DNA of 57,397 nucleotides from Actinomycetota bacterium (GTDB taxonomy: Bacteria; Actinomycetota; AC-67). Position numbers and translations under genes: made by a program. Location of the stretch: contig DATFGK010000110.1 of NCBI GenBank assembly GCA_035249485.1, positions 1 through 57,397 on the forward strand, written 5' to 3'. Shown here one piece after another: positions 12,233 through 43,294 of the stretch. How positions within the stretch are numbered: position 1 is the first letter of the stretch; every line of letters starts with the position of its first letter. Under the pieces are notes generated by a model. That model was not told the origin of the DNA, did not search any database, and worked only from the letters and a program-made list of their open reading frames with translations.

Positions 12233-12302
12233 GCGCGATCGGGCCACCGGGGTGAGGTTGGGGATTGAGGGTAATGTAGCCGCCGGGACCCAACGGAGCG
12301 AG

Positions 12303-25077: not shown

Positions 25078-25811
25078 GTCTGCCACCGCTGACGTTCAAC
25101 GCCTGGCTCCGCTACCCCCTGATCAAGAGGTTCATCGCCGACGCCGTCCCGCCCCAGGCTTCGATCCTCGAGGTCGGTATGGGACAAGGCGCTCTCGGCG
25201 TTCGTCTCTCGCGGCGGTATCGCTACGTCGGCGTCGAGATGGATCCGGTCTCGCACAACCGCGCCGCCGCGCGGATGGCCCGCTTCGGCCAAGGCCACGC
25301 GCTCCTAGGTGAGGTCTCCGCCATCCCTGAAGGCTCTCGCTTCGACGTTGTGTGTGCCTTCGAAGTTCTGGAGCACATCGAAGACGACGCCGGAGCGCTC
25401 CGGCGGTGGGGGGAATTCATCGAACGGGGTGGTCTGCTCGTGTTGAGCGTTCCGGCCTTTCAAAGGCGCTTCGGACCTGCCGACCGCGCCGCGGGTCACT
25501 TCCGCCGCTACGAACCCAACAGCATCGCCGCCCTTCTGCGTTCAACCGGGTTCACCGACGTCGTCGTCCGGACATACGGCGTGCCGCTCGGATATGTGCT
25601 CGAGTGGGCCCGGAATGTCATCGCCTCGCGCCGCGAGCACTCCGCAAGCCTGGCAGAGTCGACGGCCCGGAGCGGCCGCCATCTCCAGCCCCCGGCGTCA
25701 GCCGGTTTCATAACCGCGTCGATCACCGCGCCGTTCCGTCTCATGCAGCGTCCCTTCCTGGGATCTGGGCGTGGAACCGGGCTTGTCGTCGCGGCTCGCC
25801 GTGATGCGTGA
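25074..25811 (+). CDS. Class I SAM-dependent methyltransferase
   Basis: ATGA overlap with the upstream stop. Motif I ILEVGMGQGAL, then FDVVCAFEVLEHIEDD...ERGGLLVLSVP. Confidence 0.85.
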   Translation: MSLPPLTFNAWLRYPLIKRFIADAVPPQASILEVGMGQGALGVRLSRRYRYVGVEMDPVSHNRAAARMARFGQGHALLGEVSAIPEGSRFDVVCAFEVLEHIEDDAGALRRWGEFIERGGLLVLSVPAFQRRFGPADRAAGHFRRYEPNSIAALLRSTGFTDVVVRTYGVPLGYVLEWARNVIASRREHSASLAESTARSGRHLQPPASAGFITASITAPFRLMQRPFLGSGRGTGLVVAARRDA

Positions 25812-25814
25812 CCG

Positions 25815-26699
25815 ATGCGGAATCGTGTCTGGCCGATCCTGCGCGCCGCTTTCGGGCTCGTCGGCGTAACCTTCCTGGCGCTCGTCTTGGTGCGAACGGT
25901 GCGGCGCCTCGGTGTCGACACGGTTCCGTCGTGGCCGTCCTTCGTTGCTGCGGGGGTGCTTTCGGCCGGCTCGATCATGATCGGCGCACGAGGCTGGGCG
26001 TCCTTGTTCGACGAGGGGTCATCCGACCTGCGGCGCGGTTTCTACGCGTCGCAGCTCGGAAAATACATCCCCGGCGGCATCTGGCAGTCCGTAGCACTCG
26101 TCGGTTCCGCATCCCGGTCCGGGGCGAGCCTGCGCCATTCCACCGTTCGCTTGCCGGTCTATATGGTGACCACGATCGTCGCAGGGGCCACGGTTGGCGC
26201 CGCTCTTTCCATCGTTGGTACGTCGGTTCCATCGGCCGCACGCTGGGGATCACTCGCAGGTTTGGCGACCTTACCCTTGCTCACCAGGCGCTGGATGATG
26301 ACCACGGTCCGGCTCTTCCGGCGCATCTCGAAGCAGCCGACCTCGGAAGAAGACCTGATCCCACCCCGCGGCGCCATCCAGCGTTCCTATCTATTCAACC
26401 TCGGTTCGGTACTTGCCGGTTCTATGGCATTCGCCGTTCTGCTTGGGTCGTTACATACGCGGGTGTCCAGCATCGAAGCCGTTACGGGATTCTGCTTGGC
26501 GTGGATCGCCGGCTTCGTGGCGGTGCCGGTCCCATCCGGGATCGGCGTGCGTGAAGCGATACTCATCGGCCTGTTCGAGTCCGGTATCGAGGGTCCAGTG
26601 GTAACGGCGGCGGTGGCTCAGCGGATCGTCGCTATCGTGGCCGAACTCATCGTCGTGTTGGCTGCGTCCGGCGCCGGGCGAGGCGCCCGTCGATCTTGA
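25815..26699 (+). CDS. UPF0104 / MprF-flippase-domain-like membrane protein (second copy)
   Basis: Polytopic. ...YASQLGKYIPGGIWQSVA... and ...VPVPSGIGVREA.L..L... are typical of the family. Confidence 0.75.
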   Translation: MRNRVWPILRAAFGLVGVTFLALVLVRTVRRLGVDTVPSWPSFVAAGVLSAGSIMIGARGWASLFDEGSSDLRRGFYASQLGKYIPGGIWQSVALVGSASRSGASLRHSTVRLPVYMVTTIVAGATVGAALSIVGTSVPSAARWGSLAGLATLPLLTRRWMMTTVRLFRRISKQPTSEEDLIPPRGAIQRSYLFNLGSVLAGSMAFAVLLGSLHTRVSSIEAVTGFCLAWIAGFVAVPVPSGIGVREAILIGLFESGIEGPVVTAAVAQRIVAIVAELIVVLAASGAGRGARRS

Positions 26700-29449
26700 G
26701 AACCGAGAAGACCCGCGGCCTCGGTCCGACGGTATGGATCGCCGTCGTGGCCGTCGTCACGATAGTCCTGACGATCGGTCCGGCGTTGTTCGGTCGGGGC
26801 GTCTTCTTCCCCGGAGACATCGTCAAGCAGGTCGCACCGTGGCAGGTCGACGCGCCGAACGACTTCCAGCCGCAGAACCGCTTGCTCACCGATCTGGTTG
26901 ACGGAGCGGCGCCGCAACGCACGGAGGTTCGCCGCGGGATCCTCGATGGCGACTACCCGCTCTGGAACCCGTACTCGGCCGGCGGGACCCCGCTCGGGAC
27001 GCAGCCGCAGAACGGGATGTTCTCGCCGCTCCATCTCCCGTACCTGATCTTCTCTCCGTCGTACGCGCCGGCGGTCGCCAAGGCGGTCGAGATGCTCGTG
27101 GCACTCCTCTTCACGTTCCTGTTCCTGCGCCGGGTCGGGCTGGGGCGGCCGGCCGCGCTGGTCGGCGGCGTGCTCTACATGAACTCGGCGTTCCTCGTGG
27201 TATGGAGCACCTTCCCGCATGCGGAGGTGGCTGCGCTCATCCCGGCGCTCTTCTGGGCGGCCGAACGTGTACTCGCGCGACGGTCGCTGATCTCTGCGTT
27301 CCCCGTGTCGGTCGTGATCGCTGTGATGCTGTTGCAAGGGTTCCCCTCGGTCGCCGCGTACGCGGGGATCGCCGTCGCGTGCTACGTCCTCATGCGTCTG
27401 GCTCTCGATCGCGGGTCGTCGATGCGGGAACGCATCAAGGTGCTGGCGCGACTCGGCGTCGCGCTCGTGCTCGGCGTCGCGCTCTCCGCGATCCAGCTGC
27501 TTCCGTTTGTCGCGACACTGGACGACTTCGATCGCACGTACCGGCTCCAGCGATCGACGAGCGTCTTGCCCGTCAGCTCCCTCGTCACCGTGGCGGTGCC
27601 GAAGGCGTTCGGCGCTCCGCGCGACCACATCGACTTCGCGCCGCGGAATCAGGTCGAGATGCAAACGTTCGCCGGAGTCACGGCCCTGGTTCTCATGATC
27701 GGCGGTTTCCTGCGGCGACCGCGGGAGGGCGTGCTTCCCGGGGTGAAGGGCTTCCTCTGGGCGGGCGTCGCCGTCCTCGTCGTCATGGTCTTCATGGGGG
27801 GTCCGCTCCTCAGTGTCTTCCAGACACTTCTCTCACCGCTCTTCGAGGAGAACGCGGTTGGGCGGATGCGATCGGTCCTCGGGTTCTTCGTCGCCTCGCT
27901 CGCGGCCGTCGGCTTCCAGTCGTTCGTCTCCTCCGATCGTCCGCGGCTGGAGATATGGCAACGGATCGTCCTGGGTGTGGGCGGCTTGGCCGCTTTGGGG
28001 GGAGCGGCAGTCGGTCTCCTGCGCATGTACGAGGTCGCCCGCAACAACGGTCACTCGTCCTACTTCCTCGATCAGCTGTGGATCCCGGGCATGGCGGCGG
28101 CAGCGGTCGTGATCGCGCTCGTGATCGGCGGTCGATGGCGGCCGGGCGGTCAGCACGTCGCCCATTGGGTCGTGCCCGTCGCGTTCGCGATCGAATCCGT
28201 GGCCTTCGCGTCCGCGTTCCTGCCGACCGTCGACCGGACCGACTTCTATCCGGTGACTCCGACGCACCGCTACCTCGCCGCCAACATCGGTCATGAGCGG
28301 ATGGCCGCCGGCGGCGGCACGATGTGGCCCGGGTCTCAGACCTTCTACCGGCTCCGGACCGTCGCCTCACACGCGTTCCATCCCACCGAATGGCGAGATC
28401 TGCTCGAGGAGGTCGGCGTCCGCGGGCCGGAGACGCAACCGCTGTTCGGGTACGGCCGAGAAACCGCATCGGCGCCGATCCTTGATCGGCTCGGAGCCGG
28501 CTTCTGGGTGTCCAGGCCCGAGGAGCTCCCGTTCGGAGAGCCCATCCGTATCTCCCCGGGCAGTGATCGCGTTGTGCTGCGCTCACGGGTGCCGGTTCGG
28601 ATCCCGACGTCGCTCGAAGGGATAAGGGCAGTTGTCGTCCGTCTGGACGAAGCGTTCTCCTCGGACGAGCAGGGCGCGTTCATGGATGCGGAGGTGCTCG
28701 CACGTGACGGGCGCGTGCTCGCGCGAGGCGAGCGACGGATCCGAGCCGGGCAGGGCCCGGCTCGGATCCACGTACCGGTCGCGGAATACCGCTCGTCCGA
28801 TGGACGCGGCCGGCCGGCGTCGATCCGTCTCACGCTCCGCTCGGACGACGACGACGCCGTCGTCCTGGGGACCGCGGGCGTGCCCGCCGTAACCGCCGTT
28901 GTCGCGGACGACGACGGGCTCCGCCTGACATTCGCGGACGGCGCCGTCGTCTACCGGCGGCTCAACGCGCTTCCACGCATCCATTGGGCGAGCAGGACCG
29001 CGGTCGTGCCGGATCCGGCGGAACGCATCCGCCGGCTCGGCGCGGGCGTCGATCCGCGGACCGTCCTCCTCTCGGCCGCCGGCCCGGAGGCGAGCGCGGA
29101 ACCGGCGCTCATCGAGATCCTCGCGGACGAGGGCGACGAGATCCGGGTGCGCGTCCGGGCCGAAGGTCGCGGCTACCTGGTCGTCGCGGATTCGATCAGC
29201 GAGGGATGGCACGCGACGGTCGACGGTGCTCGTGCCGCGATCGTGGACGCGGATCACGCCGTCGGCGCGATCGTCGTCCCCGAGGGCGACCACGTCGTTT
29301 CGCTGGTCTATCGACCCGCCGGTTGGCGCGTCGGATCCAAGGTCAGCGCCGCGAGCGCCCTCGTGCTGGCCGCGGGCGCCGTCGTTGCGTTTCGCAGGCG
29401 CCGGAGGGACGACGAGGCGATCGACCGGCCCTTGCTCGACACTCCTTGA
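26696..29449 (+). CDS. YfhO-family GT-C membrane glycosyltransferase (917 aa)
   Basis: TTG start overlapping the upstream stop (TTGA). About 13 hydrophobic segments in the N-terminal 500 aa. The C-terminal part, ...VADSISEGWHATVDGARAAIVDADHAVGAIVVPEGDHVVSLVYRP plus a final TM helix, matches the YfhO end pattern. Confidence 0.75.
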   Translation: MRTEKTRGLGPTVWIAVVAVVTIVLTIGPALFGRGVFFPGDIVKQVAPWQVDAPNDFQPQNRLLTDLVDGAAPQRTEVRRGILDGDYPLWNPYSAGGTPLGTQPQNGMFSPLHLPYLIFSPSYAPAVAKAVEMLVALLFTFLFLRRVGLGRPAALVGGVLYMNSAFLVVWSTFPHAEVAALIPALFWAAERVLARRSLISAFPVSVVIAVMLLQGFPSVAAYAGIAVACYVLMRLALDRGSSMRERIKVLARLGVALVLGVALSAIQLLPFVATLDDFDRTYRLQRSTSVLPVSSLVTVAVPKAFGAPRDHIDFAPRNQVEMQTFAGVTALVLMIGGFLRRPREGVLPGVKGFLWAGVAVLVVMVFMGGPLLSVFQTLLSPLFEENAVGRMRSVLGFFVASLAAVGFQSFVSSDRPRLEIWQRIVLGVGGLAALGGAAVGLLRMYEVARNNGHSSYFLDQLWIPGMAAAAVVIALVIGGRWRPGGQHVAHWVVPVAFAIESVAFASAFLPTVDRTDFYPVTPTHRYLAANIGHERMAAGGGTMWPGSQTFYRLRTVASHAFHPTEWRDLLEEVGVRGPETQPLFGYGRETASAPILDRLGAGFWVSRPEELPFGEPIRISPGSDRVVLRSRVPVRIPTSLEGIRAVVVRLDEAFSSDEQGAFMDAEVLARDGRVLARGERRIRAGQGPARIHVPVAEYRSSDGRGRPASIRLTLRSDDDDAVVLGTAGVPAVTAVVADDDGLRLTFADGAVVYRRLNALPRIHWASRTAVVPDPAERIRRLGAGVDPRTVLLSAAGPEASAEPALIEILADEGDEIRVRVRAEGRGYLVVADSISEGWHATVDGARAAIVDADHAVGAIVVPEGDHVVSLVYRPAGWRVGSKVSAASALVLAAGAVVAFRRRRRDDEAIDRPLLDTP

Positions 29450-29552
29450 GCGGCTCGACGAGCGCGTGCGCGACCGCTGCGGCGCCGAGGCCGGCCGCCC
29501 TTGCCCTGTTAGGATGCGCTCGACACAGGAGTACGGATTGACCCCCCCTGCC

Positions 29553-31190
29553 ATGGACCCTTCCACGTATCCTGCCGCGTCCGGAGACGCGATCGAGTCC
29601 ACCGCGCGGAAGCGCGGGCCGCTCCCGCTGCACCCATTCTTCGTCGGCGCGTTCCCGGTGCTGTTCCTGTACGCGCAGAACGTCAACGAGGTCGCGACCG
29701 GCGAGGTCTGGGTGCCCCTCGCCGCGGCCGTTGGGCTCGCGGCCGCGCTGTTGCTGATCGCGCGGCTCACGCTGCGTGATTGGCTTCGAGCCGCGTTGAT
29801 CACGTCGTTCCTCCTGCTGCTGTTCTTCTCGTACGGCCACGTCGCGGAGGTGCTCAGAGGGACCAGGATCGCGGGTGTGTTGATCGGCCGCGACCGCTAC
29901 CTGGTCCTCGGCTGGGCGATGCTCGGCCTGCTTGGAGTGATCCTGGCTGTGCGGGCCCGCAAGCGCGTGGCGGACCTGACGCGGATCCTGAACGTTACGA
30001 CCGCCGCCCTGTTGGCGGTATCTCTGGTGACGATCGGACAGGGGAAGTGGGGTTCCTCCGTGGCGCCGATCGAGCTCGGCGGCGATGTGACCCCCGCCGC
30101 GACGCCCGGCCGAACGCAGCGCGACGTGTACTTCATCGTGCTCGACCGTTACGCCGGCGAACGAACGCTGCGCGAGGCGTACGGGTTCGACAACGGTCCG
30201 TTCCTGCAGTCGCTCCGCGACAAGGGGTTCTTCATCGCCGACCAGAGCCGCGCGAACTACCCGAACACGGCGCACTCCCTCGCGGCGACGATGAACCTCG
30301 ACTATCTCCATCCGCTGAGCAACGACGTCCCCGATGCCGCGGAAGCGACCTGGGGTCCGGTCTACTCGCTCGTCCGCGAGAACAAGGTCGCGTCGTTCTT
30401 CAAGGTCGCCGGTTATCGCTACGTTCACGTGGGTTCGTGGTGGGAGCCGACGAGGAGCAGCGCGGCCGCCGACGTGGTCTATCAGTACGACCCGCTCTCC
30501 GAGTTCACACGCGTCCTTTACAGCACCACCCTCGTGTGGCCTCTGGCGAAAAGGCTCGGCATCGCATCGTCCCGACTCGACCCGCGAACCGTCGAGTGGA
30601 AGCGCGTCCCGTATCAGTTCTCGAAGCTCGCGGAGGCCCGGAGGTACGAAGGGCCCACGTTCGTGTTCGGACACCTCCTCGTGCCGCACGAGCCTTATCT
30701 CTTCAACCGCGACGGGACCTTCGTGTCGCGCGATCAGGAAGAGTCTCGTTCCACCGTCACGAACTACATCGAGCAGCTCCGTTACACGAACGACCGGATC
30801 GGCGAGCTGGTGTCGACGTTGCTGTCCGGTCCGCCGGAGACCCACCCGATCATCATCATCCAGGCGGACGAGGGCCCCCCCGGATTGCCCGTGGCGGACC
30901 CCGGACCTCCGCTCGGACCCGGGTGGCTCCACGGCACCCCTGACCAGCTCCGGCAGAAATTCAGGATCCTGAGCGCCTACTACTTCCCGGGCGTCTCGAA
31001 GACCGGCCTGTATCCGTCGATAAGCCCGGTCAACGACTTCCGGCTTCTGCTGAACACGTATTTCGGCACGAAGCTGCCGCTCCTGCCCGACGAGGCTTGG
31101 GTCTGGCAGGATGAGGAACACCTATATACGTTCCTGCCCATCTCGAGGTACCTCGAGGAGCCGACCCAGCGGGATCCGCCTGATGGATGA
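29553..31190 (+). CDS. Membrane-anchored LtaS/sulfatase-like (alkaline-phosphatase superfamily) protein, paralogue A
   Basis: N-terminal 5 TM segments, then DVYFIVLDRYAG...ANYPNTAHSLAA...FVFGHLLVPHEPY...IIIQADEGPP. Start at ATG 29553, with ATG 29514 as an alternative. Paralogous to 47723..49276. Confidence 0.75.
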   Translation: MDPSTYPAASGDAIESTARKRGPLPLHPFFVGAFPVLFLYAQNVNEVATGEVWVPLAAAVGLAAALLLIARLTLRDWLRAALITSFLLLLFFSYGHVAEVLRGTRIAGVLIGRDRYLVLGWAMLGLLGVILAVRARKRVADLTRILNVTTAALLAVSLVTIGQGKWGSSVAPIELGGDVTPAATPGRTQRDVYFIVLDRYAGERTLREAYGFDNGPFLQSLRDKGFFIADQSRANYPNTAHSLAATMNLDYLHPLSNDVPDAAEATWGPVYSLVRENKVASFFKVAGYRYVHVGSWWEPTRSSAAADVVYQYDPLSEFTRVLYSTTLVWPLAKRLGIASSRLDPRTVEWKRVPYQFSKLAEARRYEGPTFVFGHLLVPHEPYLFNRDGTFVSRDQEESRSTVTNYIEQLRYTNDRIGELVSTLLSGPPETHPIIIIQADEGPPGLPVADPGPPLGPGWLHGTPDQLRQKFRILSAYYFPGVSKTGLYPSISPVNDFRLLLNTYFGTKLPLLPDEAWVWQDEEHLYTFLPISRYLEEPTQRDPPDG

Positions 31191-32178
31191 GTTCCACGCT
31201 TCCTACGAGTACGACCTGGATCCGAACGACCCCAACAGCACCGCCGCCGCCGTCTACCGGTTCGCGCGAGCGGGCGGAAAGCGGGTCCTCGATCTGGGAT
31301 CCGGGCCCGCCATCGTCTCGTCCATGCTGAAGCGTGTCGACGGTCGAAACGTCGTGTGCATGGATAACGACCGCGATCGCCTGGCGGTCGCCGCCGGACG
31401 CGGCGTCGATCGGACGGTCTTGGCGGATCTCGACGGCGGATCGTGGGTCGAAGAGATCGCCGGCGAACGGTTCGACGTGATCATCCTCGCCGACGTGCTC
31501 GAGCATCTCGTCTTCCCGGGGAACGTCCTCGATCTGATCCGGGAGCGCCGGCTGCTCTCCGACGATGGCTTCGTCGTGGTGTCGTTCCCGAACGCGTCGC
31601 ACGAGGCGATCATCGCGGAGATCGTCGGAGGCTGGTTCACGTATCGCGAGTCGGGACTGCTGGATTCCACGCACCTCCGCTTCTTCACGCTCGAGAGCTT
31701 CACCAGACTCGCCGAGACGCACGGCTTCCAGATCGGCGCCCTCCACAGAACCGTCCTCGCTCTCGAGGACACGGAGGCGGCCGGGAAGGCCGGCGCGATC
31801 CCCGTTCCCGTCCGCCTCGAGATCGCGCGCGCGAACCCCGAGGCGAAGACATACCAGTACGTGACGCGGCTCGAGCCGTTCGGCCGTCGGGGCGTCGTGG
31901 AGGCCGCGGAGGAGAAGCGGGCGATGGAGCTCGAAGCGGAGCTGCGGGCCTCGCGCGAAGCGATCGAGCGGGAGCGAGAGGCACACGAGCGGGAACGGAA
32001 CGCCGCCGAACGTTCACGGGCGCGCGTGGAACGAGAGCTCGTCGACGTGAAGTCGGACCTCCGTCGTGAAACGGCGCGGCTCGAGCGGATCCGCGGCACG
32101 GCAACGTGGCGATCCCGAGGGTTCCTCGCGCGGATCGGGAGGCGGGTTCTCCGGCGAAACCGGCCCGGCCGCTCCTGA
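31183..32178 (+). CDS. Class I SAM-methyltransferase with C-terminal coiled coil and basic amphipathic tail
   Basis: ATG at 31183, with an 8-nt overlap upstream. Motif I VLDLGSGPA, then FDVIILADVLEHL. Residues ~240-305 are a Glu/Arg-rich heptad-like stretch (EEKRAMELEAELRASREAIEREREAHERERNAAERSRARVERELVDVKSDLRRETARLERI), followed by TATWRSRGFLARIGRRVLRR. Confidence 0.8.
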   Translation: MDEFHASYEYDLDPNDPNSTAAAVYRFARAGGKRVLDLGSGPAIVSSMLKRVDGRNVVCMDNDRDRLAVAAGRGVDRTVLADLDGGSWVEEIAGERFDVIILADVLEHLVFPGNVLDLIRERRLLSDDGFVVVSFPNASHEAIIAEIVGGWFTYRESGLLDSTHLRFFTLESFTRLAETHGFQIGALHRTVLALEDTEAAGKAGAIPVPVRLEIARANPEAKTYQYVTRLEPFGRRGVVEAAEEKRAMELEAELRASREAIEREREAHERERNAAERSRARVERELVDVKSDLRRETARLERIRGTATWRSRGFLARIGRRVLRRNRPGRS

Positions 32179-34892
32179 TGAGCGTGTCGGTCGTGCATCG
32201 CTCCGGCACCGGCGGCGACGCGGAGGTCCCGCTGATCGGCTCCCTCGTCGAGGCGGCGGGGGACGCGAAACGCGTTCTGGCGCTCGGACGGCTCGCCGTT
32301 GACTCCGCCGCGGTGCTCGCGGCCGAATACGGCGTGACCGCCGTCTCCGTCGAAGAGGATCCCGAGCCCGCCGAGGCGGTGCGAGCCGCGAGCGCCGGAA
32401 CCGTACGGGTGGCGGACATCGCGGGCGGCGACTGGGTCGGCTCCGTCGGCGACCCCTTCGATGTGGTCATCCTCGGCGACCTCCTCGAGCGATCGGCACA
32501 CCCCGGCCGGCTCCTGGACGTGATCCGTTCGGAGAAACTCCTGCGCGACGGTGGCGCCGTCGTGGTCGCCGTCACGAACGCCGGCTCGTGGGGCGGCGTC
32601 TCCGCGCTGCTCACGCCCGGCGGGCCGTCTGAGGGGATCCTCGCCGGCGACCGCATCCGGTTCTTCACGCGACGCAGCATCATCGATCTGCTGAACAGAC
32701 ACGGATTCGAGATGTCGGAGATGCATCGCCTCCAAGGCGGCTCCAAGGCGGCGGAGGGGCTGCCGCCCGCGTTGCTTCGGTTCATGGGCGACGCTTCCGA
32801 TCCCGAGGTGACGCACTTCGTCGTCCGTGCCGAGCCGGTCGGCAGCTCGCACGAGCTCATGCGCCTCACGCGCGAACTGGAACGGTCGGTGGACGAGCGC
32901 GGCCGCTTGCTCAATCAGATCGCCGCCGAGCGGCGGACATTCCTCGATCTCTCCGCCGCTGCCGGACGGCGCGAGGAACGGCTTCTGGAGGAGCTCCGGC
33001 GGGTCCACCGGGTGGCCGAGACTCGCGGGAACGCGCTGAAGAAGATCCAGCGATCGCGAGCATGGCGGATCGCGCGATCGTTCGGCGCCGTCGCGCGGGC
33101 GGCTCGCGACCCGTCCTGGGCGTGGAAGCGGCTGCGCGGGAAGAAGGCGGAGCCGCCCGCTCGGAGCGTCCGCAGATCGCGAACGGCGCGGAGGACGGCC
33201 GCTCGCGTGGAGCGAGCCGGCACCCTTCGCTCGGCGGCGGCGACCGCCGCGCCACGGCTCTCGATCGTGATCCCCGTCTACAACGGCTTCGAGGTGACGC
33301 GTCAGTGTCTCGAAAGCATCTTCGCGGCTTCGATAGGTGTGAGCTTCGAGGTGATCGTCGTCGACAACGCGTCGCGCGACGGCGTCTCGCCTTGGCTCGA
33401 GGATCAGCGAAAGCGGCGCCCCGCCATGTCGCTGATCGCGAACGACGTCAACCGCGGGTTCGGACCGGGCGTCAATCAAGGCGCGGGATCCGCGAGCGGT
33501 GACTACATCCTGATCTGCAACAGCGATGTCGTCATCCCGCCTGGAGCCTTGGAGCGGCTCGTCAGGGCTCTCGACGAGAACCCCGATGTCGGGATCGTCA
33601 GCCCCGTGACCAACTACGTCGGCGAGGGACCACAACTCGACCAGGATGCGAGCGACGTGACGCCCGATTCGGTGGCCGAGTTCGCACGGCGCGCCCTCGA
33701 GCGCGATGCGCAGCTCGAGTTCGCCCCCGACCGCCTCGTCTTCTTCTGCGTGATGATGCGGCGCAGTTTGTTCGAAGTCCTGGGCGGATTCCCCGAGGTC
33801 TATGGGGTGGGCAACTTCGAGGACGACGACCTCTGCGTTCGCACGCGGATGCTGGGGTACCGGCTCGCGATCGACAGGAGCGCGTTCGTCTTCCACCACG
33901 GGTCGGCCACGTGGGAGGCCGGTCGGATATCGCACAAGGATTGGATGGAACGGAACCGTCCGATCTACTACCAGCGGCTGGCCGACCTCTCCGTCACGCT
34001 GATCAGGCGGCCGCGGGTTCCGGTTCGGACCCCGCAGGTGTCCGTCGTCGTTCGCACCGTCGATCGCCCCAAGCTCCTCCGGCAGGCACTCACGAGCCTG
34101 GCGAACCAGACCTTCGCAGGCTTCGAGGTCGTCCTGATCAACGACAGCGGCCCAGATCTCGATGACCTGGTGGCCGAGTTCGAGCCGTACCTATCGATCA
34201 ACTACGTTCGTCATCCCGAGCCCCGGGGGCGCTCGGTCGCGCTCAACCGGGGGCTCGAGGAGGCGAAGGGCCGCTGGATCACCTACCTCGACGACGACGA
34301 CATCATCTACCCGATCCATCTCGACGTCCTGGCGCATTCGCTGGAGGAGACCGGCTTCCGCGTGGCGTACGCGGACGTGAACAAGGTCCTCTGTCTGGTC
34401 GCGCCGGATCGGTATGCCGTCGTCGCGCGCGAGCCGTTCGGGTTCTTCGAGTTCGATCCCGACCAGCTGCTGCTCGCGAACCGGCTCCCGATCCAATCCG
34501 TCGTCCACGCAGCCGAGTGCATCCCGTCGGTCGGAGCGTTCGATGAGTCGCTCGACGTGCTCGAGGATTGGGACTTCATGATCCGCCTGTCGAGGCGCTT
34601 CCCCTTCTTCCACGCCCGGCGATTCACCTCCGAGTACCGGTTCTGGGTGTCGACGGCGACGGAGAACTCGATCGTGGCGAAGCGCGACGACGCGCTCGAG
34701 ACGCACCGTCTCATCTACGACCGGTACCCCGTGTCGGACGAATCGCTGGTCAAGCGCCGTCTCGAACGCCTGGAGAACGCCCGGGATCAGATCGACAAGA
34801 TCCGCGTGATCCGCGGGTCCGCCAGATCGGAATCGGAGAAGGCCTTCGACATCGCCCGACTGGTTTGCGGCTTCCGACTGGATGACCGTTGA
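32178..34892 (+). CDS. Multidomain protein: degenerate methyltransferase-like domain + coiled coil + two GT2 domains (904 aa)
   Basis: ATG at 32178 (TGATG overlap). Its N-terminus is collinear with the preceding MT, but motif I reads VLALGRLAV. Coil at residues ~225-290, then SRAWRIARSFG. GT2 #1: LSIVIPVYNG...VVDNASRDG...NFEDDDL. GT2 #2: VSVVVRTVDR...LINDSG...YLDDDDI...EDWDF. Confidence 0.8.
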   Translation: MSVSVVHRSGTGGDAEVPLIGSLVEAAGDAKRVLALGRLAVDSAAVLAAEYGVTAVSVEEDPEPAEAVRAASAGTVRVADIAGGDWVGSVGDPFDVVILGDLLERSAHPGRLLDVIRSEKLLRDGGAVVVAVTNAGSWGGVSALLTPGGPSEGILAGDRIRFFTRRSIIDLLNRHGFEMSEMHRLQGGSKAAEGLPPALLRFMGDASDPEVTHFVVRAEPVGSSHELMRLTRELERSVDERGRLLNQIAAERRTFLDLSAAAGRREERLLEELRRVHRVAETRGNALKKIQRSRAWRIARSFGAVARAARDPSWAWKRLRGKKAEPPARSVRRSRTARRTAARVERAGTLRSAAATAAPRLSIVIPVYNGFEVTRQCLESIFAASIGVSFEVIVVDNASRDGVSPWLEDQRKRRPAMSLIANDVNRGFGPGVNQGAGSASGDYILICNSDVVIPPGALERLVRALDENPDVGIVSPVTNYVGEGPQLDQDASDVTPDSVAEFARRALERDAQLEFAPDRLVFFCVMMRRSLFEVLGGFPEVYGVGNFEDDDLCVRTRMLGYRLAIDRSAFVFHHGSATWEAGRISHKDWMERNRPIYYQRLADLSVTLIRRPRVPVRTPQVSVVVRTVDRPKLLRQALTSLANQTFAGFEVVLINDSGPDLDDLVAEFEPYLSINYVRHPEPRGRSVALNRGLEEAKGRWITYLDDDDIIYPIHLDVLAHSLEETGFRVAYADVNKVLCLVAPDRYAVVAREPFGFFEFDPDQLLLANRLPIQSVVHAAECIPSVGAFDESLDVLEDWDFMIRLSRRFPFFHARRFTSEYRFWVSTATENSIVAKRDDALETHRLIYDRYPVSDESLVKRRLERLENARDQIDKIRVIRGSARSESEKAFDIARLVCGFRLDDR

Positions 34893-35419
34893 GTTCAGCG
34901 GGAGTCGCCCCACAGGAGGGCGTCGAGGTCCGGAAACCCTCCGAGTCCAATGTCGTCCTCTCTCAAGCGATGAGCATCACGGACGCCAACCTGTCGGGGA
35001 ATGTCCATGGTGGCGTCATCATGAAGCTGTGCGATACGGCTGCCGGGCTCTCGGCGGTGAAGCACTCCAAAGGGCGCGTCGTCACGGTCGCCATGGACGA
35101 GATGGTTTTCATCGAGCCCGTCTACCTCTCGGACGTCGTCACGCTGCGCGCGCAGGTGAACGACGTCGGCCGGACCTCGATGGAGATCGGCGTCCGTGTC
35201 GAGGCCGAAAACACGCTGTCCGGGGAGCGGCGGCACGTCTCAACCGCATATCTCGTGTTCGTGGCGCTCGACAAGGACGGCAACCCGAAGGCGGTTCCCC
35301 GGCTCGAGCCGGAGACGCTCGACGAGCAGCGGCGGATGGCGGAGGCGAAGATCCGCCGTGAACATCGCCTCGCCCGTAAAGAGGCGATCCTCAAGCGCAG
35401 GGCCGAACAGGGCGAATAG
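34889..35419 (+). CDS. Hotdog-fold acyl-CoA thioesterase (YciA/BFIT-like)
   Basis: TTG start overlapping the upstream stop (TTGA). ...MSITDANLSGNVHGGVIMKLCDTAAG...VTVAMDEMVFIEPVYLSDVVTL.A.VN.VGRTSMEIGV.V. Confidence 0.8.
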   Translation: MSSAGVAPQEGVEVRKPSESNVVLSQAMSITDANLSGNVHGGVIMKLCDTAAGLSAVKHSKGRVVTVAMDEMVFIEPVYLSDVVTLRAQVNDVGRTSMEIGVRVEAENTLSGERRHVSTAYLVFVALDKDGNPKAVPRLEPETLDEQRRMAEAKIRREHRLARKEAILKRRAEQGE

Positions 35420-35461: not shown

Positions 35462-36160
35462 GTGCCGGTCTCGAAGCTGACCATCGCCGTGCCCGTCTAC
35501 AACGAGCGCGCGCGCGTCGCACGGGCGCTCAAGGAGCTCCAGTCGACGCCGTTCCCGGTCGAGACGGAGGTCATCGTCGTCGACGACGGTTCCTCGGACG
35601 GAACCTGGGAAGAGCTCGGCCAGATGATGATGCCGGAGAACGTTCGGCTGATCAGGCACCCCGAGAACCGTGGGAAGGGGGCTGCGCTCCGTACGGCGCT
35701 CGAGGCGGCTTCGGGCGATGTGTTCGTTCCGTTCGATGCCGACCTCGAGTACGACCCGGCCGACCTCGCCAAGTGCATCCAGCCGCTGATCCGGGACGAC
35801 GCCGATGTCGTTTACGGGACGAGGAACTTCGGCTCGCACACGGCGTTCTCGTACTGGTACGTGCTCGGGAATAGATTCCTGAACACCTGGGCCAACGTGC
35901 TCTTCAACTGCTACATCTCCGATCTCGAGACCTGTTACAAGATGGTCCGCACCCCGATCCTGCGGTCGCTGGACCTTCGTTCCGACGGCTTCGACATCGA
36001 GGCCGAGGTAACGGCCAAGCTGTTGCGGGCAGACCATCGTCCCTACGAGGTTCCGATCAGCTACAAGGCGCGCACGCGCGCCCAAGGCAAGAAGATCGCG
36101 TGGCAGGACGGCGTGATCGCGCTGTGGGTGATCGCGAAGATCCGCCTCGGTCGCGGGTAG
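35462..36160 (+). CDS. Soluble GT2 glycosyltransferase (232 aa; polyprenyl-phosphate-sugar-synthase-like catalytic domain)
   Basis: GTG start. LTIAVPVYNE...VVDDGSSDGT...NRGKGAALR...FDADLEYDP...DLETCYKM. Confidence 0.85.
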   Translation: MPVSKLTIAVPVYNERARVARALKELQSTPFPVETEVIVVDDGSSDGTWEELGQMMMPENVRLIRHPENRGKGAALRTALEAASGDVFVPFDADLEYDPADLAKCIQPLIRDDADVVYGTRNFGSHTAFSYWYVLGNRFLNTWANVLFNCYISDLETCYKMVRTPILRSLDLRSDGFDIEAEVTAKLLRADHRPYEVPISYKARTRAQGKKIAWQDGVIALWVIAKIRLGRG

Positions 36161-36258: not shown

Positions 36259-37623
36259 GTGAAACAAGCAGAACGTCCAACCGTCGAGTTCCGCAGCTAC
36301 CGCGAGAAGCCGCGTCGCAAGCGCAAGGTTCTCAAGTGGCTGCTGATCGCGACGCTGAGCCTCGCCGCACTCGTCGGCGGGACCGCTGCGTACTTGTGGG
36401 ACTACGTCAACGACAAGTTCCGCGAGACCCACCAGGACCTCAAGGTCGATCCGCTTCCGGCCGGGCAAGCACAGAACATCCTCGTCCTCGGCTCGGATCG
36501 GCGGGATGTCGTCGACAAGGCGCAGCAGGACGAACGGGCCTTCCGGGGTGGGAGCGGTCGTCGCGCCGACACCATCCTCGTTGTGCACGTTCCGGCCGAC
36601 CACGCCTCGGCGACGATCCTTTCCTTCCCGCGCGATCTCCGCGTGAGGATCCCCGGCCGCAGCGGTTTCTCCAAGATCAACGCCGCTTACAACGGCGGCA
36701 CCGTCGACGGGAAGAAGCTCAACGGGCCCGACCTGATGATGGAGACGATCCGCCGCCATACGGGTCTCAAGATCCATCACTACGTCGAGATCAACTTCGC
36801 GTCGTTCCAGAAGATCGTCGACGCGGTCGGCGGCGTGAGGCTGTGCGTCGACCGGCCCTACGACGACAAGGAGTCCGGACTGATCGTCGAGAAGGCCGGC
36901 TGCCAGGTCTACGGTGGGAAGCTCGCGCTCTCGTACGTCCGGATGCGCAAGCAGGACCCGCGCGGCGACTTCGGACGGATCGAGCGGCAGCAGCAATTCA
37001 TGCGCGTGCTGATGTCGAAGGTGACGAGCATCGGCGTCCTCGCGGACCCTCTCGCGATCAGGAAGCTCGCCGACGCGGTTGCCGCTGGTGTCATCACCGA
37101 TGAGGAGCTCGATCTCGGCGAGGTTCAGGGGATCGCGAACAAGCTCGCCGACTACAAGCAGTCGAACGTCGACTTCCGCGTCGTGCCGTCGTTCCCCGAC
37201 TACATCGGCGGGGTCTCGTACGTGATCCAACGTGAGGCGCAGGCGAGGGCGCTCTACAAGGCGCTCCGCGAGGACACCGAGCTGCCGCCGTTCGGGAAGA
37301 CCGGCGCCTCGATCCCCAAGCCCGAGGACGTCACGATCCAGGTCCTCAACGGCACCGGGGTTGCAGGCCTGGCCGGCGAGGTGCGTGACGAGCTCGAGAG
37401 GCTCGGCTTCGACGTGACCGAGATCGGCAACGCCGATCGGCGAGACTACGCGGAGACCGTGATCCTCTACCGGTTCGGGGCCGAGGCCAAAGCGGCGCTG
37501 GTGAACGAGCTCCCGGACTTCACCGGCCCGAAGCCCAAGCAGGGTTCGGCCAAGCAGAAGGTCGACATCATCATCATCCTCGGCGCCGACGCGGCCCCCA
37601 CGCCCAGCCCCAGCCCGAGCTAG
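36259..37623 (+). CDS. LCP-family (LytR-CpsA-Psr) glycopolymer-peptidoglycan ligase with LytR_C domain
   Basis: GTG start after GGAGGCGAGG. N-terminal TM helix. ...NILVLGSDRR...RADTILVVHV.......ILSFPRDL.V.IPG....KIN.AY..GG...HYVEINFASF..IVDAVGGV... C-terminal VTIQVLNGTGVAGLAG. Confidence 0.9.
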   Translation: MKQAERPTVEFRSYREKPRRKRKVLKWLLIATLSLAALVGGTAAYLWDYVNDKFRETHQDLKVDPLPAGQAQNILVLGSDRRDVVDKAQQDERAFRGGSGRRADTILVVHVPADHASATILSFPRDLRVRIPGRSGFSKINAAYNGGTVDGKKLNGPDLMMETIRRHTGLKIHHYVEINFASFQKIVDAVGGVRLCVDRPYDDKESGLIVEKAGCQVYGGKLALSYVRMRKQDPRGDFGRIERQQQFMRVLMSKVTSIGVLADPLAIRKLADAVAAGVITDEELDLGEVQGIANKLADYKQSNVDFRVVPSFPDYIGGVSYVIQREAQARALYKALREDTELPPFGKTGASIPKPEDVTIQVLNGTGVAGLAGEVRDELERLGFDVTEIGNADRRDYAETVILYRFGAEAKAALVNELPDFTGPKPKQGSAKQKVDIIIILGADAAPTPSPSPS

Positions 37624-37652
37624 CGGCCTCGACCCGGTACTCTTTCGCCTCG

Positions 37653-38714
37653 ATGAAAGCGCTGATCCCATCCGGCGGCGCCGGTACCCGTTTGCGGCCG
37701 ATCACGCACACCTCGGCAAAGCAACTTGTCCCGATCGCGAACAAGCCGATCCTCTTCTACGGGCTCGAGGCGCTCGCGGCCGCCGGGATCCGCGAGGTGG
37801 GCCTCGTCGTCGGCGACACGGCGCCCGAGATCGAGACGGCGGTCGGCGACGGCTCCGCGTGGGGACTCGAGTGCACCTACATCCCCCAGGAGGCGCCCCT
37901 CGGGCTCGCGCACACCGTGCTCATCTCCCGGGAGTTCCTCGGCGAGGACGACTTCGTGATGTACCTCGGCGACAACGTGCTCAAGGGCGGGATCACAAAT
38001 CTCGTAACCGCTTTCGAGGAGCGCCGCTGCGCCGCGCAGATCCTGCTCGCGCACGTGCTCGACCCGCAGCGCTTCGGTGTCGCCGAGCTCGACGGCGAGC
38101 GCATCGTCCGGCTGATCGAGAAGCCGCCGGACCCGCCCTCCGACCTGGCGCTCGTCGGCGTCTACCTGTTCACGCCGCTGATCCACGAAGCGGTTCGCGC
38201 GATCCAGCCGTCCGGGCGCGGCGAGCTCGAGATCACCGACGCGATCCAGTGGCTGATCGACAACGGCCACGAGGTCCGGCCGCATCTCGTCGAGGGCTGG
38301 TGGAAGGACACCGGGAAGCTCAACGACCTGCTCGATGCGAACCGCCTGATCATGGAGGATCTCAAGCCCGAGCGGGACGGCACCGCCGATGAGAAGTCCA
38401 CCCTCGTGGGCAACGTGGTGCTCCAGGAGGGTTCGGTCGTCGAGAACTCTTCGATCCGTGGTCCGGCGGTGATCGGGCGCGACACGCGCGTGGTCGACTC
38501 GTTCATCGGGCCGTACACGGCGATCGGCGACGGCTGCACGATCGAGGACTCGGAGATCGAGCACTCGGTGATCATGGAGGGCTGCACCGTTCGCGGGATG
38601 CACCGCCTCGAGGATTCGCTGCTCGGGAAAGAGGTCACGGTCGAGCGCTCGGACGACAAGCCGAAGGCCTACCGCCTGATGGTCGGGGATCACGGCCGCG
38701 TCGGGGTGATCTAG
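37653..38714 (+). CDS. rmlA: Glucose-1-phosphate thymidylyltransferase (long, ~355-aa form)
   Basis: MKALIPSGGAGTRLRPITHTSAKQLVPIANKPIL.Y.LE......I.EVG.VVG...; a left-handed beta-helix-like C-terminus. Confidence 0.9.
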   Translation: MKALIPSGGAGTRLRPITHTSAKQLVPIANKPILFYGLEALAAAGIREVGLVVGDTAPEIETAVGDGSAWGLECTYIPQEAPLGLAHTVLISREFLGEDDFVMYLGDNVLKGGITNLVTAFEERRCAAQILLAHVLDPQRFGVAELDGERIVRLIEKPPDPPSDLALVGVYLFTPLIHEAVRAIQPSGRGELEITDAIQWLIDNGHEVRPHLVEGWWKDTGKLNDLLDANRLIMEDLKPERDGTADEKSTLVGNVVLQEGSVVENSSIRGPAVIGRDTRVVDSFIGPYTAIGDGCTIEDSEIEHSVIMEGCTVRGMHRLEDSLLGKEVTVERSDDKPKAYRLMVGDHGRVGVI

Positions 38715-39680
38715 TTGCGTCTGCTGGTCACCGGCGGCGCCGGGTTCATCGGCTCCAACTACGTCCGCTGGGTCCTTCGCGAGCGGACCGACGTCGAGCT
38801 CACCAACTACGACCTGCTCACGTACGCCGGCAACCTCGAGAACCTCCGCGATATCGAGGAGGGCAACCGGTATCGCTTCGTGAAGGGCGACATCTGCGAC
38901 TCGGCGTTGCTCGACGAGGTGCTGCCGGGCCACGACGCGATCGTGAACTTCGCCGCCGAGTCGCACGTCGACCGTTCGATCGATTGGGCAGCCGAGTTCG
39001 TGCGGACGAACATGCTCGGGACGAACGCGCTCCTCGAGGCCGCCCGGCGTCACGGCACGCCGCGCTACCTCCAGGTATCGACCGACGAGACCTACGGCTC
39101 GATCGACGTGGGCTCGTTCCAAGAGGAGGATCGGCTCGATCCGTCGAGCCCGTACTCGGCGTCGAAGGCCGGCGGCGACATGCTCGTCCGCGCGTACCAC
39201 CGGACCTACGGCCTGCCGGTGCTGATCACCCGCGGATCGAACACCTACGGGCCGTACCAGTATCCCGAGAAGGTCATCCCGCTGTTCGTGACCAACCTGC
39301 TCGAGGACAAGCCGGTGCCGCTGTACGGCGACGGGCTCAACGTGCGGGACTGGATCCACGTCGAGGACCACGCCGCCGGGATCCACGCGGTGCTCGAGAA
39401 CGGAGAGTTCGGCCAGATCTACAACGTGGCCGGTGGCAACGAGCTCACCAACATCGAACTAACGAAGCGGATCTGCGATCTGCTCGGCAAGCCGCACTCG
39501 CTCATCACCCCGGTGACGGACCGGCCGGGCCACGACCGCCGGTACTCGGTCGACACGACCCGGGCGCGTGCGCTCGGCTGGGAGCCTCGATGGGACCTGG
39601 ACGACGGGCTCATCGCCACCGTCGAGTGGTATCGCGAGAACCGCTGGTGGTGGGAACCGATCCGCGCCCGCCAGGGGTGA
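38715..39680 (+). CDS. rmlB: dTDP-glucose 4,6-dehydratase
   Basis: TTG start directly after the rmlA stop. LLVTGGAGFIGSNYVR...LTYAGNLENL...FVKGDI.D...NFAAESHVDRSI....F..TN..GT..LLEA....QVSTDE.YG...PSSPYSASKA..D. Confidence 0.95.
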   Translation: MRLLVTGGAGFIGSNYVRWVLRERTDVELTNYDLLTYAGNLENLRDIEEGNRYRFVKGDICDSALLDEVLPGHDAIVNFAAESHVDRSIDWAAEFVRTNMLGTNALLEAARRHGTPRYLQVSTDETYGSIDVGSFQEEDRLDPSSPYSASKAGGDMLVRAYHRTYGLPVLITRGSNTYGPYQYPEKVIPLFVTNLLEDKPVPLYGDGLNVRDWIHVEDHAAGIHAVLENGEFGQIYNVAGGNELTNIELTKRICDLLGKPHSLITPVTDRPGHDRRYSVDTTRARALGWEPRWDLDDGLIATVEWYRENRWWWEPIRARQG

Positions 39681-39684
39681 ACGC

Positions 39685-41537: not shown

Positions 41538-41580
41538 GGGCGCCGATAAGATAAGGGTCCGTTCGGCTCGGAGCGCTCCC

Positions 41581-43242: not shown

Positions 43243-43294
43243 GCGGCTCCACCCGCGCGTTGAGCGGCGACGATCGGCGGGATACGTTGTGCCG

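Follow-up and report, generated by a model that had tools for sequence, protein, structure and literature searches.

Fusions of a methyltransferase (MT), a stalk and glycosyltransferase (GT) modules, as well as split pairs of an MT-stalk protein and a polymerase, are a known design, represented by WbdD/WbdA, WbbB, Klebsiella O7 ORF6 and Geobacillus WsaE. In the WbdD/WbdA systems of E. coli O8 and O9a and Klebsiella O5 and O3, the polymerase WbdA is a multi-GT-module protein and the cap is a methyl (O8) or phospho-methyl (O9a) group; WbdD is a separate terminator, whose long helical stalk bears the catalytic domain at its distal end and an amphipathic, membrane-binding helix at its proximal one (PMC11231755, PMC3482155). 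WbbB, from Klebsiella O12 and Raoultella terrigena, combines a terminator module, a coiled-coil ruler and two polymerase GT modules in one protein (PMC11231755); its terminator is a beta-Kdo glycosyltransferase rather than an MT, and is active in cis. In Klebsiella pneumoniae O7 ORF6, an MT at the N-terminus is followed by a central coiled coil and, at the C-terminus, by two GT2 modules that assemble a rhamnose-containing repeat; the GT modules are present in some orthologues and absent from others (PMC11231755). The O7 protein terminates its own product and, besides an active MT, contains a novel kinase and a CBM. A Gram-positive representative is WsaE, from the S-layer glycan system of Geobacillus stearothermophilus NRS 2004/3a, in which an N-terminal MT is joined to two rhamnosyltransferase modules; the 2-O-methyl cap that it adds is proposed to end chain growth, and export proceeds through Wzm/Wzt (PMC2943079).

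The locus analyzed here lies in a 57-kb stretch of DNA from an uncultured member of the Actinomycetota, referred to throughout as the window. A previous sequence-only reading had proposed that two of its genes form a polymerase-terminator pair of this class, adding that no such system seemed to have been described in an LCP-dependent, Gram-positive-type context. The latter statement is contradicted by WsaE (PMC2943079) and by homologous systems, which are common in Actinomycetota and occur in Cellulomonas, Oerskovia, Actinotalea, Nocardioides and Micromonospora genomes.

The gene pair

The two genes and their domains are as follows.

31183-32178, forward strand: gene 1, 331 aa; apparently active MT followed by a helical stalk and a basic Trp-containing tail; candidate chain terminator acting in trans
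31183-31878, forward strand: gene 1 class I MT domain, aa 1-232; motif I VLDLGSGPA intact; family motifs LEH, PNxxH, FxY and LLDxTHxRFFT
31894-32097, forward strand: gene 1 stalk, aa 238-305; single predicted AF2 helix of 68 residues, about 10 nm
32101-32157, forward strand: gene 1 C-terminal basic amphipathic Trp helix, aa 307-325, TATWRSRGFLARIGRRVLR; AF2 helix 307-325; predicted membrane-proximal anchor
32178-34892, forward strand: gene 2, 904 aa; candidate polymerase, built of a pseudo-MT, a coiled-coil stalk, a Trp helix, a linker rich in Arg and two GT2 modules
32178-32837, forward strand: gene 2 pseudo-MT domain, aa 1-220; fold kept; motif I VLALGRLAV
32844-33053, forward strand: gene 2 coiled-coil stalk, aa 223-292 (70 residues); single AF2 helix 223-292, mostly at pLDDT >90
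33054-33134, forward strand: gene 2 Trp helices, aa 293-319, SRAWRIARSFGAVARAARDPSWAWKRL; AF2 helices 294-310 and 312-319
33135-33251, forward strand: gene 2 Arg-rich low-confidence linker, aa 320-358, read directly from the sequence; pLDDT <50 from residue 322 (model of aa 1-340)
33252-33977, forward strand: gene 2 GT2 module A, aa ~359-600; Pfam stretch 362-534; PDB 6yv7 and 2z86 domain 2
34026-34667, forward strand: gene 2 GT2 module B, aa ~617-830; DDDD motif; PDB 9jma (PglI), E 1.3e-20 over 621-813, and 2z86 domain 1

The 1-nt overlap reported for the two genes is borne out by their TGATG junction, where the gene 1 stop (32176-32178) meets the gene 2 ATG at 32178, and the same products of 331 and 904 aa are predicted by an independent gene caller (ENA contig). 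Upstream, the start of gene 1 overlaps the stop of a sulfatase-domain gene by 8 nt, ATGGATGA.

The assignment of gene 1 as a class I MT with an intact glycine motif stands, with matches to Pfam Methyltransf_23 (E 1.9e-15) and PDB 3cc8 (E 4.8e-20), an AF2 model at pLDDT 93, and retention of 39 of the 41 family-conserved columns, which is the family median. Residues 31-222 of gene 2 are collinear with gene 1 (33% identity over 204 residues, E 4e-24, BLASTP), as had been read for its first 220 residues or so, and the AF2 model of this N-terminal domain adopts a class I MT fold (pLDDT 87), with 3cc8 as best Foldseek match. Its sequence nonetheless gives good support to the previous call of a pseudo-MT. 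Besides the altered motif I, 16 of the 41 conserved columns are lost and 25 retained, placing gene 2 among the lowest 3 of 148 homologues; the losses include H105, S131, P133, H137, the FxY residues, D156, T158, H159, Q213 and the N-terminal Tyr. No relative of the pseudo-MT above 37% identity appears among the 150 best matches in 1.84 billion representatives, and no orthologue of it was found in the databases searched. The two complete GT2 domains attributed to gene 2 correspond to two Glycos_transf_2 stretches (Pfam, E 3.5e-50), both of which align to the two GT2 domains of chondroitin polymerase (2z86/2z87); module A carries an N-S-D variant of the DxD motif that is common to homologues.

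A coiled coil had been claimed in each protein, and only the gene 2 half of this claim can be upheld. The gene 2 stalk shows very strong hydrophobic heptad periodicity (z = 11.7, best period 3.50). In gene 1, where the helix 238-305 is a confident AF2 prediction, a coiled coil is uncertain because the full-length stalk has no significant 3.5 periodicity (z ~0, against z = 3 at period 3.65), is 55% charged, and rises above shuffles in a crude heptad score only over its C-terminal 44 residues; among 37 family stalks it ranks highest in charge and lowest in heptad character, and it may instead form a charged single helix. The basic amphipathic Trp helices, on the other hand, are real in both proteins (hydrophobic moments 0.47 and 0.52, net charges +7 and +4, for genes 1 and 2 respectively), and their motif, (S/T)x(S/T/A)W(R/K)xG, is family-wide and conserved in homologues.

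Stalk lengths and homologous loci

Measured from the QY/HF residues to the Trp, the stalks of genes 1 and 2 span 84 and 83 residues in a family where stalks range from 53 to 210. Conservation of the gene pair was a point raised by the sequence-only reading. None of the 80 related genome loci holds a tandem MT pair, and the arrangement is therefore rare; a second, independent tandem pseudo-MT/MT pair (4-nt overlap, 43% identical) is found in an unrelated contig, with stalks of 113 and 113 residues. This double match in length provides circumstantial evidence in favour of docking between MT and pseudo-MT, although equal lengths could merely be inherited from duplication. The stalk regions of genes 1 and 2 share no detectable sequence similarity (E 0.35), each being closer to the stalk of a third protein of the cluster, ORF C (E 7e-10 and 6e-11, respectively). 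A classical hetero-coiled coil between them is not indicated, because the highly charged gene 1 stalk is devoid of a clear heptad seam.

Proteins related to gene 1 resemble terminator modules and occur either in fusion with polymerases, as the N-terminal module of large glycosyltransferases, or separately, as stand-alone MT-stalk-tail proteins. Wzm/Wzt are present in 29 of the 85 related loci scanned, and 20 of these 29 Wzt proteins bear a C-terminal extension of 114-198 residues, the size of a cap-binding CBM; loci with such tails include those of Cellulomonas, Oerskovia and Actinotalea. The locus of the closest GT2-GT2 homologue contains rmlBAD, an MT-coil-SSRTWRL protein and Wzm/Wzt with a Laminin_G_3 match. 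Architecture and genomic association thus lend support to the proposed membership of the pair in the stalk class of polymerases and terminators.

ORF C and the surrounding cluster

Two further genes of the cluster bear on the interpretation of the pair.

43220-44251, forward strand: GT2 gene (Pfam); located ahead of the stalk polymerase in almost every actinobacterial relative
44244-46673, forward strand: ORF C, 809 aa; third stalk protein, with coil at aa 12-65, YDTKTWKLG and two GT4-like modules

ORF C is a WbdA-like GT4x2 polymerase without the N-terminal MT that its closest orthologue carries, and is 53% identical to residues 237-1051 of homologue P0044 and 56-71% identical to its counterpart in genome L003. 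Its ATG at 44244 overlaps the stop of the GT2 gene, ATGTCTGA, and the position of this gene upstream of MT-stalk-GT4x2 is conserved in L003-L015. The window also encodes RmlD-, RmlB- and NTP-transferase-like proteins, with an LCP gene just downstream, and additional MT genes at 25074-25811, 41149-43242, 46692-47699 and 49273-50661; at least three other MTs of the cluster could perform capping or other methylation. No Wzm/Wzt ABC transporter was detected in the window (tblastn E >1). Both ORF C and the missing transporter had been overlooked in the sequence-only reading.

Comparison with described systems

The domain order of gene 2 (MT-coil-GT2-GT2) is exactly that of O7 ORF6, but its MT is degenerate, there is neither kinase nor CBM, and a separate live paralogue lies upstream. 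Gene 1 is laid out like WbdD, and the GT4x2 of ORF C resembles WbdA. Nonetheless, the MT of the gene 1 family belongs to a different, 3cc8-like subfamily, and the 60 top-ranking PDB matches listed with the family profile as query, none weaker than E 1.2e-06, do not include WbdD. As opposed to WbdD/WbdA, moreover, the locus has no kinase, the gene 2 polymerase bears its own stalk and dead MT, the host is of Gram-positive type with an LCP ligase in place of WaaL, and the transporter is missing from the window. WsaE, compared here by its published description, has an active MT with no paralogous stand-alone MT described, and its product is transferred to the S-layer protein, whereas here an LCP enzyme would direct it to peptidoglycan.

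Alternative explanations

As a partner of gene 1, ORF C is as plausible as gene 2, and serving one does not exclude serving the other. A stricter proposal, which we consider unlikely, assigns gene 1 to ORF C instead of gene 2, as a terminator that became detached: the module would have been duplicated or split off and ORF C would have lost its MT, the dead MT of gene 2 would be an unrelated relic, and the gene 2 polymer would either lack a cap or receive one from a different enzyme. The best genome match to gene 1 (58% identity over the MT domain), in L003, is indeed an MT fused to the ORF C orthologue (70-71%), next to genes 85% and 72% identical to those at 41149 and 43220 in the window. The ORF C start coincides exactly with the MT/stalk boundary, the stalk and tail of gene 1 resemble those of ORF C and not those of gene 2, and split pairs of MT-stalk and GT4x2 genes exist in Nocardioides. 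Against this, gene 1 lies 12 kb from ORF C while being translationally coupled to gene 2, whose stalk it matches in length, the predicted coil of ORF C being about 54 residues; and gene 1 may not be a direct orthologue of the L003 MT, because the flanking orthologues reach 70-85% identity.

That gene 1 is a decorating O-methyltransferase of internal residues, with stalks and Trp helices merely oligomerising the enzymes and holding them at the membrane and length being set otherwise, appears distinctly doubtful. The abundance of methyltransferases in the cluster suggests a heavily methylated glycan, and the window lacks a Wzt with a cap-reading module, both of which would fit decoration. The MT-stalk family, however, travels with Wzm/Wzt bearing CBM-sized tails, an extended coil is described as characteristic of terminators (PMC11231755), and stalk length is conserved within pairs and variable between lineages, as predicted for a ruler. 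Finally, the intact fold of the gene 2 N-terminal domain and its retained acidic positions (D80, D95, D101 and E104) do little to rescue the very remote case of an active MT with an unusual SAM site, and hence of two working MTs performing, for instance, two different methylations, against the replacement of the motif I Asp and both small/Gly loop positions by Ala, Arg and Leu, the loss of another 11 polar or aromatic positions that are nearly invariant, those of the LEH, PNxxH and LLDxTH motifs among them, and its low rank in conserved columns.

A proposed stalk polymerase and its terminator

The reading we favour, at a probability of roughly 0.5, is that genes 1 and 2 constitute a stalk, or molecular ruler, polymerase-terminator pair for a rhamnose-containing, LCP-attached cell-wall polysaccharide. 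The new element is the pair of live and dead MT paralogues with matched stalks, since the MT-stalk-GT architecture itself is already known. In METTL3-METTL14 and DNMT3A-DNMT3L, a dead paralogue with a kept fold is the structural partner of a live MT; those are unrelated MT families acting on nucleic acids, and genes 1 and 2 are candidates for a similar arrangement.

Domain content, degeneration of the gene 2 MT, helices, matched lengths and the association of the family with polymerases and Wzm/Wzt are observations, whereas methyl capping, length control and physical pairing of the two proteins are inferred. Gene 2 would act as the polymerase, with one GT2 module per linkage, kept at the membrane by the basic Trp helix beside these modules, while its coiled coil would project outward, tipped by an MT-fold domain presumably unable to bind SAM or catalyse. 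Gene 1, the live paralogue, with its intact MT on an equally long helix ending in the same Trp helix, would deliver an O-methyl cap in trans. With stalks of equal length, its active site would sit at the height of the dead domain, some 10 nm away from the polymerase, so that capping and growth arrest would be limited to chains grown to that distance. The dead domain and stalk of gene 2 may have been retained as a scaffold, either holding the live terminator in place or recruiting it, and gene 1 may also serve ORF C, the second stalk polymerase of the cluster, whose own MT has been lost.

Gene organisation and host

The argument turns on two adjacent genes:

31183-32178 (+): gene 1, a 331-aa methyltransferase (MT) followed by a long helix, or stalk, and a Trp-containing tail
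32178-34892 (+): gene 2, a 904-aa protein with an MT-like domain, a stalk, a Trp helix, an Arg-rich linker and two GT2 modules, A and B

They share one base at a TGATG junction, an overlap already described in the sequence-only reading and confirmed here; gene calling done independently on the public ENA contig reproduces both the 331-aa and the 904-aa products. The ATG of gene 1 in turn overlaps the stop of an upstream sulfatase-domain gene by 8 nt, and with these 1-nt and 8-nt overlaps both genes thus lie within a chain of coupled ORFs. A GTG start for gene 2 at 32106 (928 aa) gives a 73-nt overlap with gene 1 and was rejected; the ATG at 32178 is preferred, and is also the choice of the independent call. 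The G+C content of the window is 66-71%, and the nearest genome matches to gene 1, at no more than 47% identity, come from Actinomycetota and Acidimicrobiia MAGs; hence, the host is an uncultured actinobacterium outside the species representatives.

An intact methyltransferase and its degenerate paralogue

Gene 1 looks like a working MT. It matches Pfam Methyltransf_23 (E 1.9e-15), its closest solved relative is 3cc8 (family profile E 1.5e-62), and it presents the Gly-rich motif I (VLDLGSGPA) and the conserved pocket residues of its family. Of 41 columns with a conservation of 80% or more across 148 relatives, it retains 39, the family median. The first 222 residues of gene 2 are, as had been noted, collinear with gene 1 and constitute a paralogue of it (33% identity over 204 residues, E 4e-24), modelled as a class I MT fold (pLDDT 87) with 3cc8 as the top Foldseek match. 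Its motif I reads VLALGRLAV, not the Gly-rich form, and only 25/41 conserved columns are kept, placing gene 2 among the lowest three of the 148 relatives. Nearly all of the 16 positions lost are polar or aromatic, and the losses include the H of LEH, the S, P and H of SxPNxxH, FxY, the D, T and H of LLDxTH, the Q of YQF and an N-terminal Tyr. The proposal of a non-catalytic pseudo-MT has held up on these counts: the domain is a class I MT by descent but probably not by activity, and the pseudoenzyme reading is well founded.

Searches for orthologues of the pseudo-MT, wanted in order to measure selection, turned up none; an exhaustive search with the first 340 residues of gene 2 returned 1663 relatives with top matches at 30-37% identity, and none of the best 150 exceeded 41%. 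WbdD chains were absent from the PDB matches of a single-sequence search and from the 60 best family-profile PDB matches listed (all E <=1.2e-06; 587 chains at E up to 1), so that these searches showed nothing beyond a common class I fold to connect the family with the MT domain of WbdD.

Stalks, Trp helices and glycosyltransferase modules

In the AlphaFold models, the MT fold of gene 1 is followed by one long helix of 68 residues (238-305) and a short helix (307-325), and that of gene 2 by one long helix (223-292) and short helices (294-319). A coiled coil had been suggested for each gene. This stands for gene 2, where the 3.5-residue hydrophobic repeat is exceptionally clean (z = 11.7 against shuffles, best period 3.50), and is uncertain for gene 1, whose stalk has no significant heptad periodicity (z ~0 at 3.5) and, with 55% charged residues, ranks highest in charge and lowest in heptad character among 37 stalks of the family; it may form a charged single helix instead. 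A crude 28-residue heptad score flagged gene 1 and not gene 2; it was treated as weak, and we relied instead on the periodicity test, whose outcome was the reverse and more clear-cut. Distally, gene 1 bears an intact MT on a helix without significant heptad periodicity, and gene 2 a degenerate module on a heptad coil. The motif Trp lies 84 residues past the end of the MT fold in gene 1 and 83 in gene 2, in a family whose stalks range from 53 to 210, and no similarity between the two stalks is detectable by sequence comparison.

Both stalks are followed by basic amphipathic Trp helices (hydrophobic moment 0.47-0.52, net charge +7 and +4), which bear a motif common to the whole family, (S/T)x(S/T/A)W(R/K)xG. 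Such features fit a membrane-proximal anchor, and in both genes the amphipathic helix that begins where the stalk ends proximally is predicted to associate with the membrane.

The two complete GT2 domains originally recognized in gene 2 are corroborated by two Pfam GT2 stretches (E 3.5e-50). Chondroitin polymerase, with its two domains, aligns to both of them, and PglI in addition to module B. The Asp-containing metal/donor motif expected of a GT-A fold GT2 is found in both, as DDDD in module B and as N-S-D in module A, where it is conserved in homologues as N-(S/N)-D.

A third stalk protein in the cluster

The sequence-only reading overlooked a further stalk protein:

44244-46673 (+): ORF C, 809 aa, with a coil, a YDTKTWKLG motif and two GT4-like modules

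The start ATG and the stop of the GT2 gene upstream of it overlap (ATGTCTGA). The closest orthologue, in the related locus L003, is 70-71% identical and is accompanied by neighbouring genes that are 85% and 72% identical to those of the window. The L003 protein begins with an intact MT that ranks first among the genome matches to gene 1 (58% identity), and ORF C starts exactly at the MT/stalk boundary. Both stalk polymerases of the cluster thus lack a functional distal domain, leaving gene 1 as the single live stalk MT. Each polymerase is predicted to have one GT module per linkage, with two GT2 modules in gene 2 and two GT4-like modules in ORF C.

The surrounding genes make up a wall-glycopolymer cluster, with the following content:

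Transferases and ligase: GT2, GT4 and further MT genes; small GT2s resembling polyprenyl-phosphate-sugar synthases; an LCP ligase
Membrane proteins: two UPF0104/MprF-TM-like, a YfhO-type GT-C, two of sulfatase/LtaS type
Nucleotide-sugar genes: RmlD-like, RmlB-like, two NTP transferases, a UDP-GlcNAc 2-epimerase, a UDP-sugar dehydrogenase

Several of its members merit separate mention. The 697-aa product of 41149-43242 (+) fuses an AglJ/PpgS-like, polyprenyl-phosphate-sugar-synthase-like GT2 to a C-terminal Methyltransf_23 domain, is 85% identical to an L003 protein and might make a methylated lipid-linked sugar donor. Components resembling three-part extracytoplasmic glycosylation systems occur at 25815-29449, 35462-36160, 12213-13358 and 54326-56398; they include a small DPM1-like GT2 (35462), a YfhO-type GT-C with a weak PgfM2 match (26696), a PMT_2-type GT-C (54326) and two UPF0104/LPG_synthase_TM-like membrane proteins that could be flippases, one of which, the ORF at 25815, has no Pfam match but a GKYIPGGIW motif. 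Membrane proteins with sulfatase/LtaS-type domains are encoded at 29538-31190 (+), translationally coupled to gene 1, and at 47723-49276 (-); by analogy with streptococcal GacH, they could decorate the polysaccharide with glycerol-phosphate or a related substituent. A 4HBT-family thioesterase gene (34970-35419, +) lies between the polymerase and the next GT2, an odd companion inside a glycan operon. The stretch 36259-40542 (+) encodes the LCP ligase, then a GDP-mannose-pyrophosphorylase-like NTP transferase with an LbH tail, an RmlB-like dehydratase and RmlD, a set that we take to resemble the conserved mycobacterial Lcp1-ManB-WbbL-RmlD neighbourhood.

Relation to known systems and to the wider family

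The design of the family appears to be that of the published polymerase-terminator strategy, for which the coiled coil has been termed a marker (PMC11231755). In WbdD/WbdA the terminator is a separate protein built on a coiled coil and ending in an amphipathic helix at the C-terminus; gene 1 has a comparable layout on a helical stalk. WbbB and Klebsiella O7 ORF6 are single proteins, the latter with the same MT-coil-GT2-GT2 order as gene 2 (PMC11231755). The Gram-positive WsaE joins an MT to two rhamnosyltransferase modules and adds a 2-O-methyl cap (PMC2943079), and the earlier suggestion that a Gram-positive precedent was lacking was therefore too strong. In the streptococcal rhamnopolysaccharide literature (PMC11754754) we found nothing on termination. 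Since these systems share the design, the architecture of gene 2 and the layout of gene 1 are both of known kinds; what had been observed in the sequence was essentially right, and its interpretation partly so, the class itself being already known.

The best gene-1-like relatives come either as stand-alone MT-stalk-motif proteins of 310-400 aa or as the N-terminal module of proteins of ~1050-1130 aa, the remainder of which consists of two GT4-like modules. Related genomes also contain MT-stalk-GT2(-GT2) fusions and, in Nocardioides, split adjacent genes (MT-stalk, 398 aa; GT4x2, 716 aa). The closest relative of the GT2-GT2 part of gene 2 (45% identity) has this locus:

rmlB, rmlA and rmlD; an MT-coil-SSRTWRL protein; the GT2-GT2 protein; Wzm; Wzt with a Laminin_G_3 match

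Wzm/Wzt genes were found in 29 of the 85 related loci scanned, those of Cellulomonas, Oerskovia and Actinotalea among them, and in 20 of these 29 Wzt extends 114-198 residues beyond its ATPase domain, a size that matches the module reading capped chain ends. A Wzm/Wzt transporter, usually with a cap-binding module on Wzt, is expected in loci of the class of WbdD/WbdA, WbbB, O7 ORF6 and WsaE; none was found in the 57-kb window by tblastn with the Wzt of the related locus L083 and with Wzm (E above 1). No coding frame of the window contains a Walker A match and no ABC ATPase was detectable in it. A first ABC screen, based on Walker A and LSGGQ patterns, proved too strict, missing the Pfam-confirmed Wzt of L083, and was replaced by tblastn. 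Given the transporters of the 29 related loci, that of the window may be located outside the 57 kb.

Live/dead pairs

What is unusual is that a live candidate terminator, standing alone, goes together with a polymerase in which a dead copy has been kept on a separate stalk. The family contains further degenerate MT-stalk modules: P0183, fused to GT4x2, and the stand-alone P0101 and P0085. P0085 (motif I VLLFANAAH) lies on an unrelated metagenome contig, L086 (8001-10063), in tandem with an intact MT-stalk paralogue (4-nt overlap, 43% identity) and ahead of GT4 genes; the two stalks are of exactly 113 residues each, and both proteins have a coil and an RT(K/R)L(F/V)RW tail. P0085 and its neighbour make up another live/dead pair in tandem, independent of the first and likewise with stalks of matched length; such a pair, seen twice here, is what is new relative to the known class. 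The arrangement is rare: none of 80 related genome loci holds a tandem MT pair, and the L086 case surfaced when the contexts of degenerate family members were checked, not in that scan. P0101, a stand-alone degenerate MT-stalk-motif protein with VLDLGGRLDAV (L085, 6403-7422), stands among GT4/GT2 fusion genes on a 10-kb contig in which no intact MT was found; here, the stalk may have been kept as a scaffold although MT activity is gone altogether.

Proposed mechanism

To the reading that we consider best overall we assign a probability of roughly one half. Gene 2 would be the polymerising enzyme, gene 1 would cap its chains in trans, and the dead domain of gene 2, with its stalk of equal length, would act as scaffold and ruler. 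Its main rival, to which the L003 orthologue of ORF C lends weight, is that gene 1 serves ORF C, either instead of gene 2 or besides it; the coupling of genes 1 and 2 and their equal stalks point to gene 2. Internal, non-terminal methylation by gene 1 is a lesser alternative, and so is some remaining MT activity in the first domain of gene 2, whose fold is preserved but whose motif I is altered and many of whose conserved columns are lost.

A broader and more tentative proposal, which we think doubtful as a whole, is that stalk-borne terminators may be hetero-oligomers of live and dead MT paralogues. The dead 'cap' domain that a polymerase bears on its own ruler would dock a live paralogue acting in trans on an equal stalk; one terminator would thus serve both gene 2 and ORF C within one Gram-positive wall-polysaccharide cluster, and the scheme would have arisen at least twice, in the window and in L086. 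Four observations count against any strong claim: a coiled coil is not clearly indicated for the gene 1 stalk, the window lacks the transporter, the tandem arrangement is rare and the gene 2 pseudo-MT yielded no orthologues for a selection test.

Implications

The practical value of the locus is modest, as it concerns an uncultured organism and a mechanism that we infer. Chain-length control by stalk rulers has so far been worked out almost only in Gram-negative O-antigens, and the window locus, together with its many actinobacterial relatives, suggests that Gram-positive Actinomycetota assemble wall polysaccharides by the same logic, with homologous systems available in culturable relatives such as Cellulomonas, Oerskovia, Nocardioides and Micromonospora. 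Live and dead paralogues on matched stalks would extend the known designs by a pseudoenzyme scaffold, and would constitute a natural experiment on whether the distal domain plays a structural part besides catalysis.
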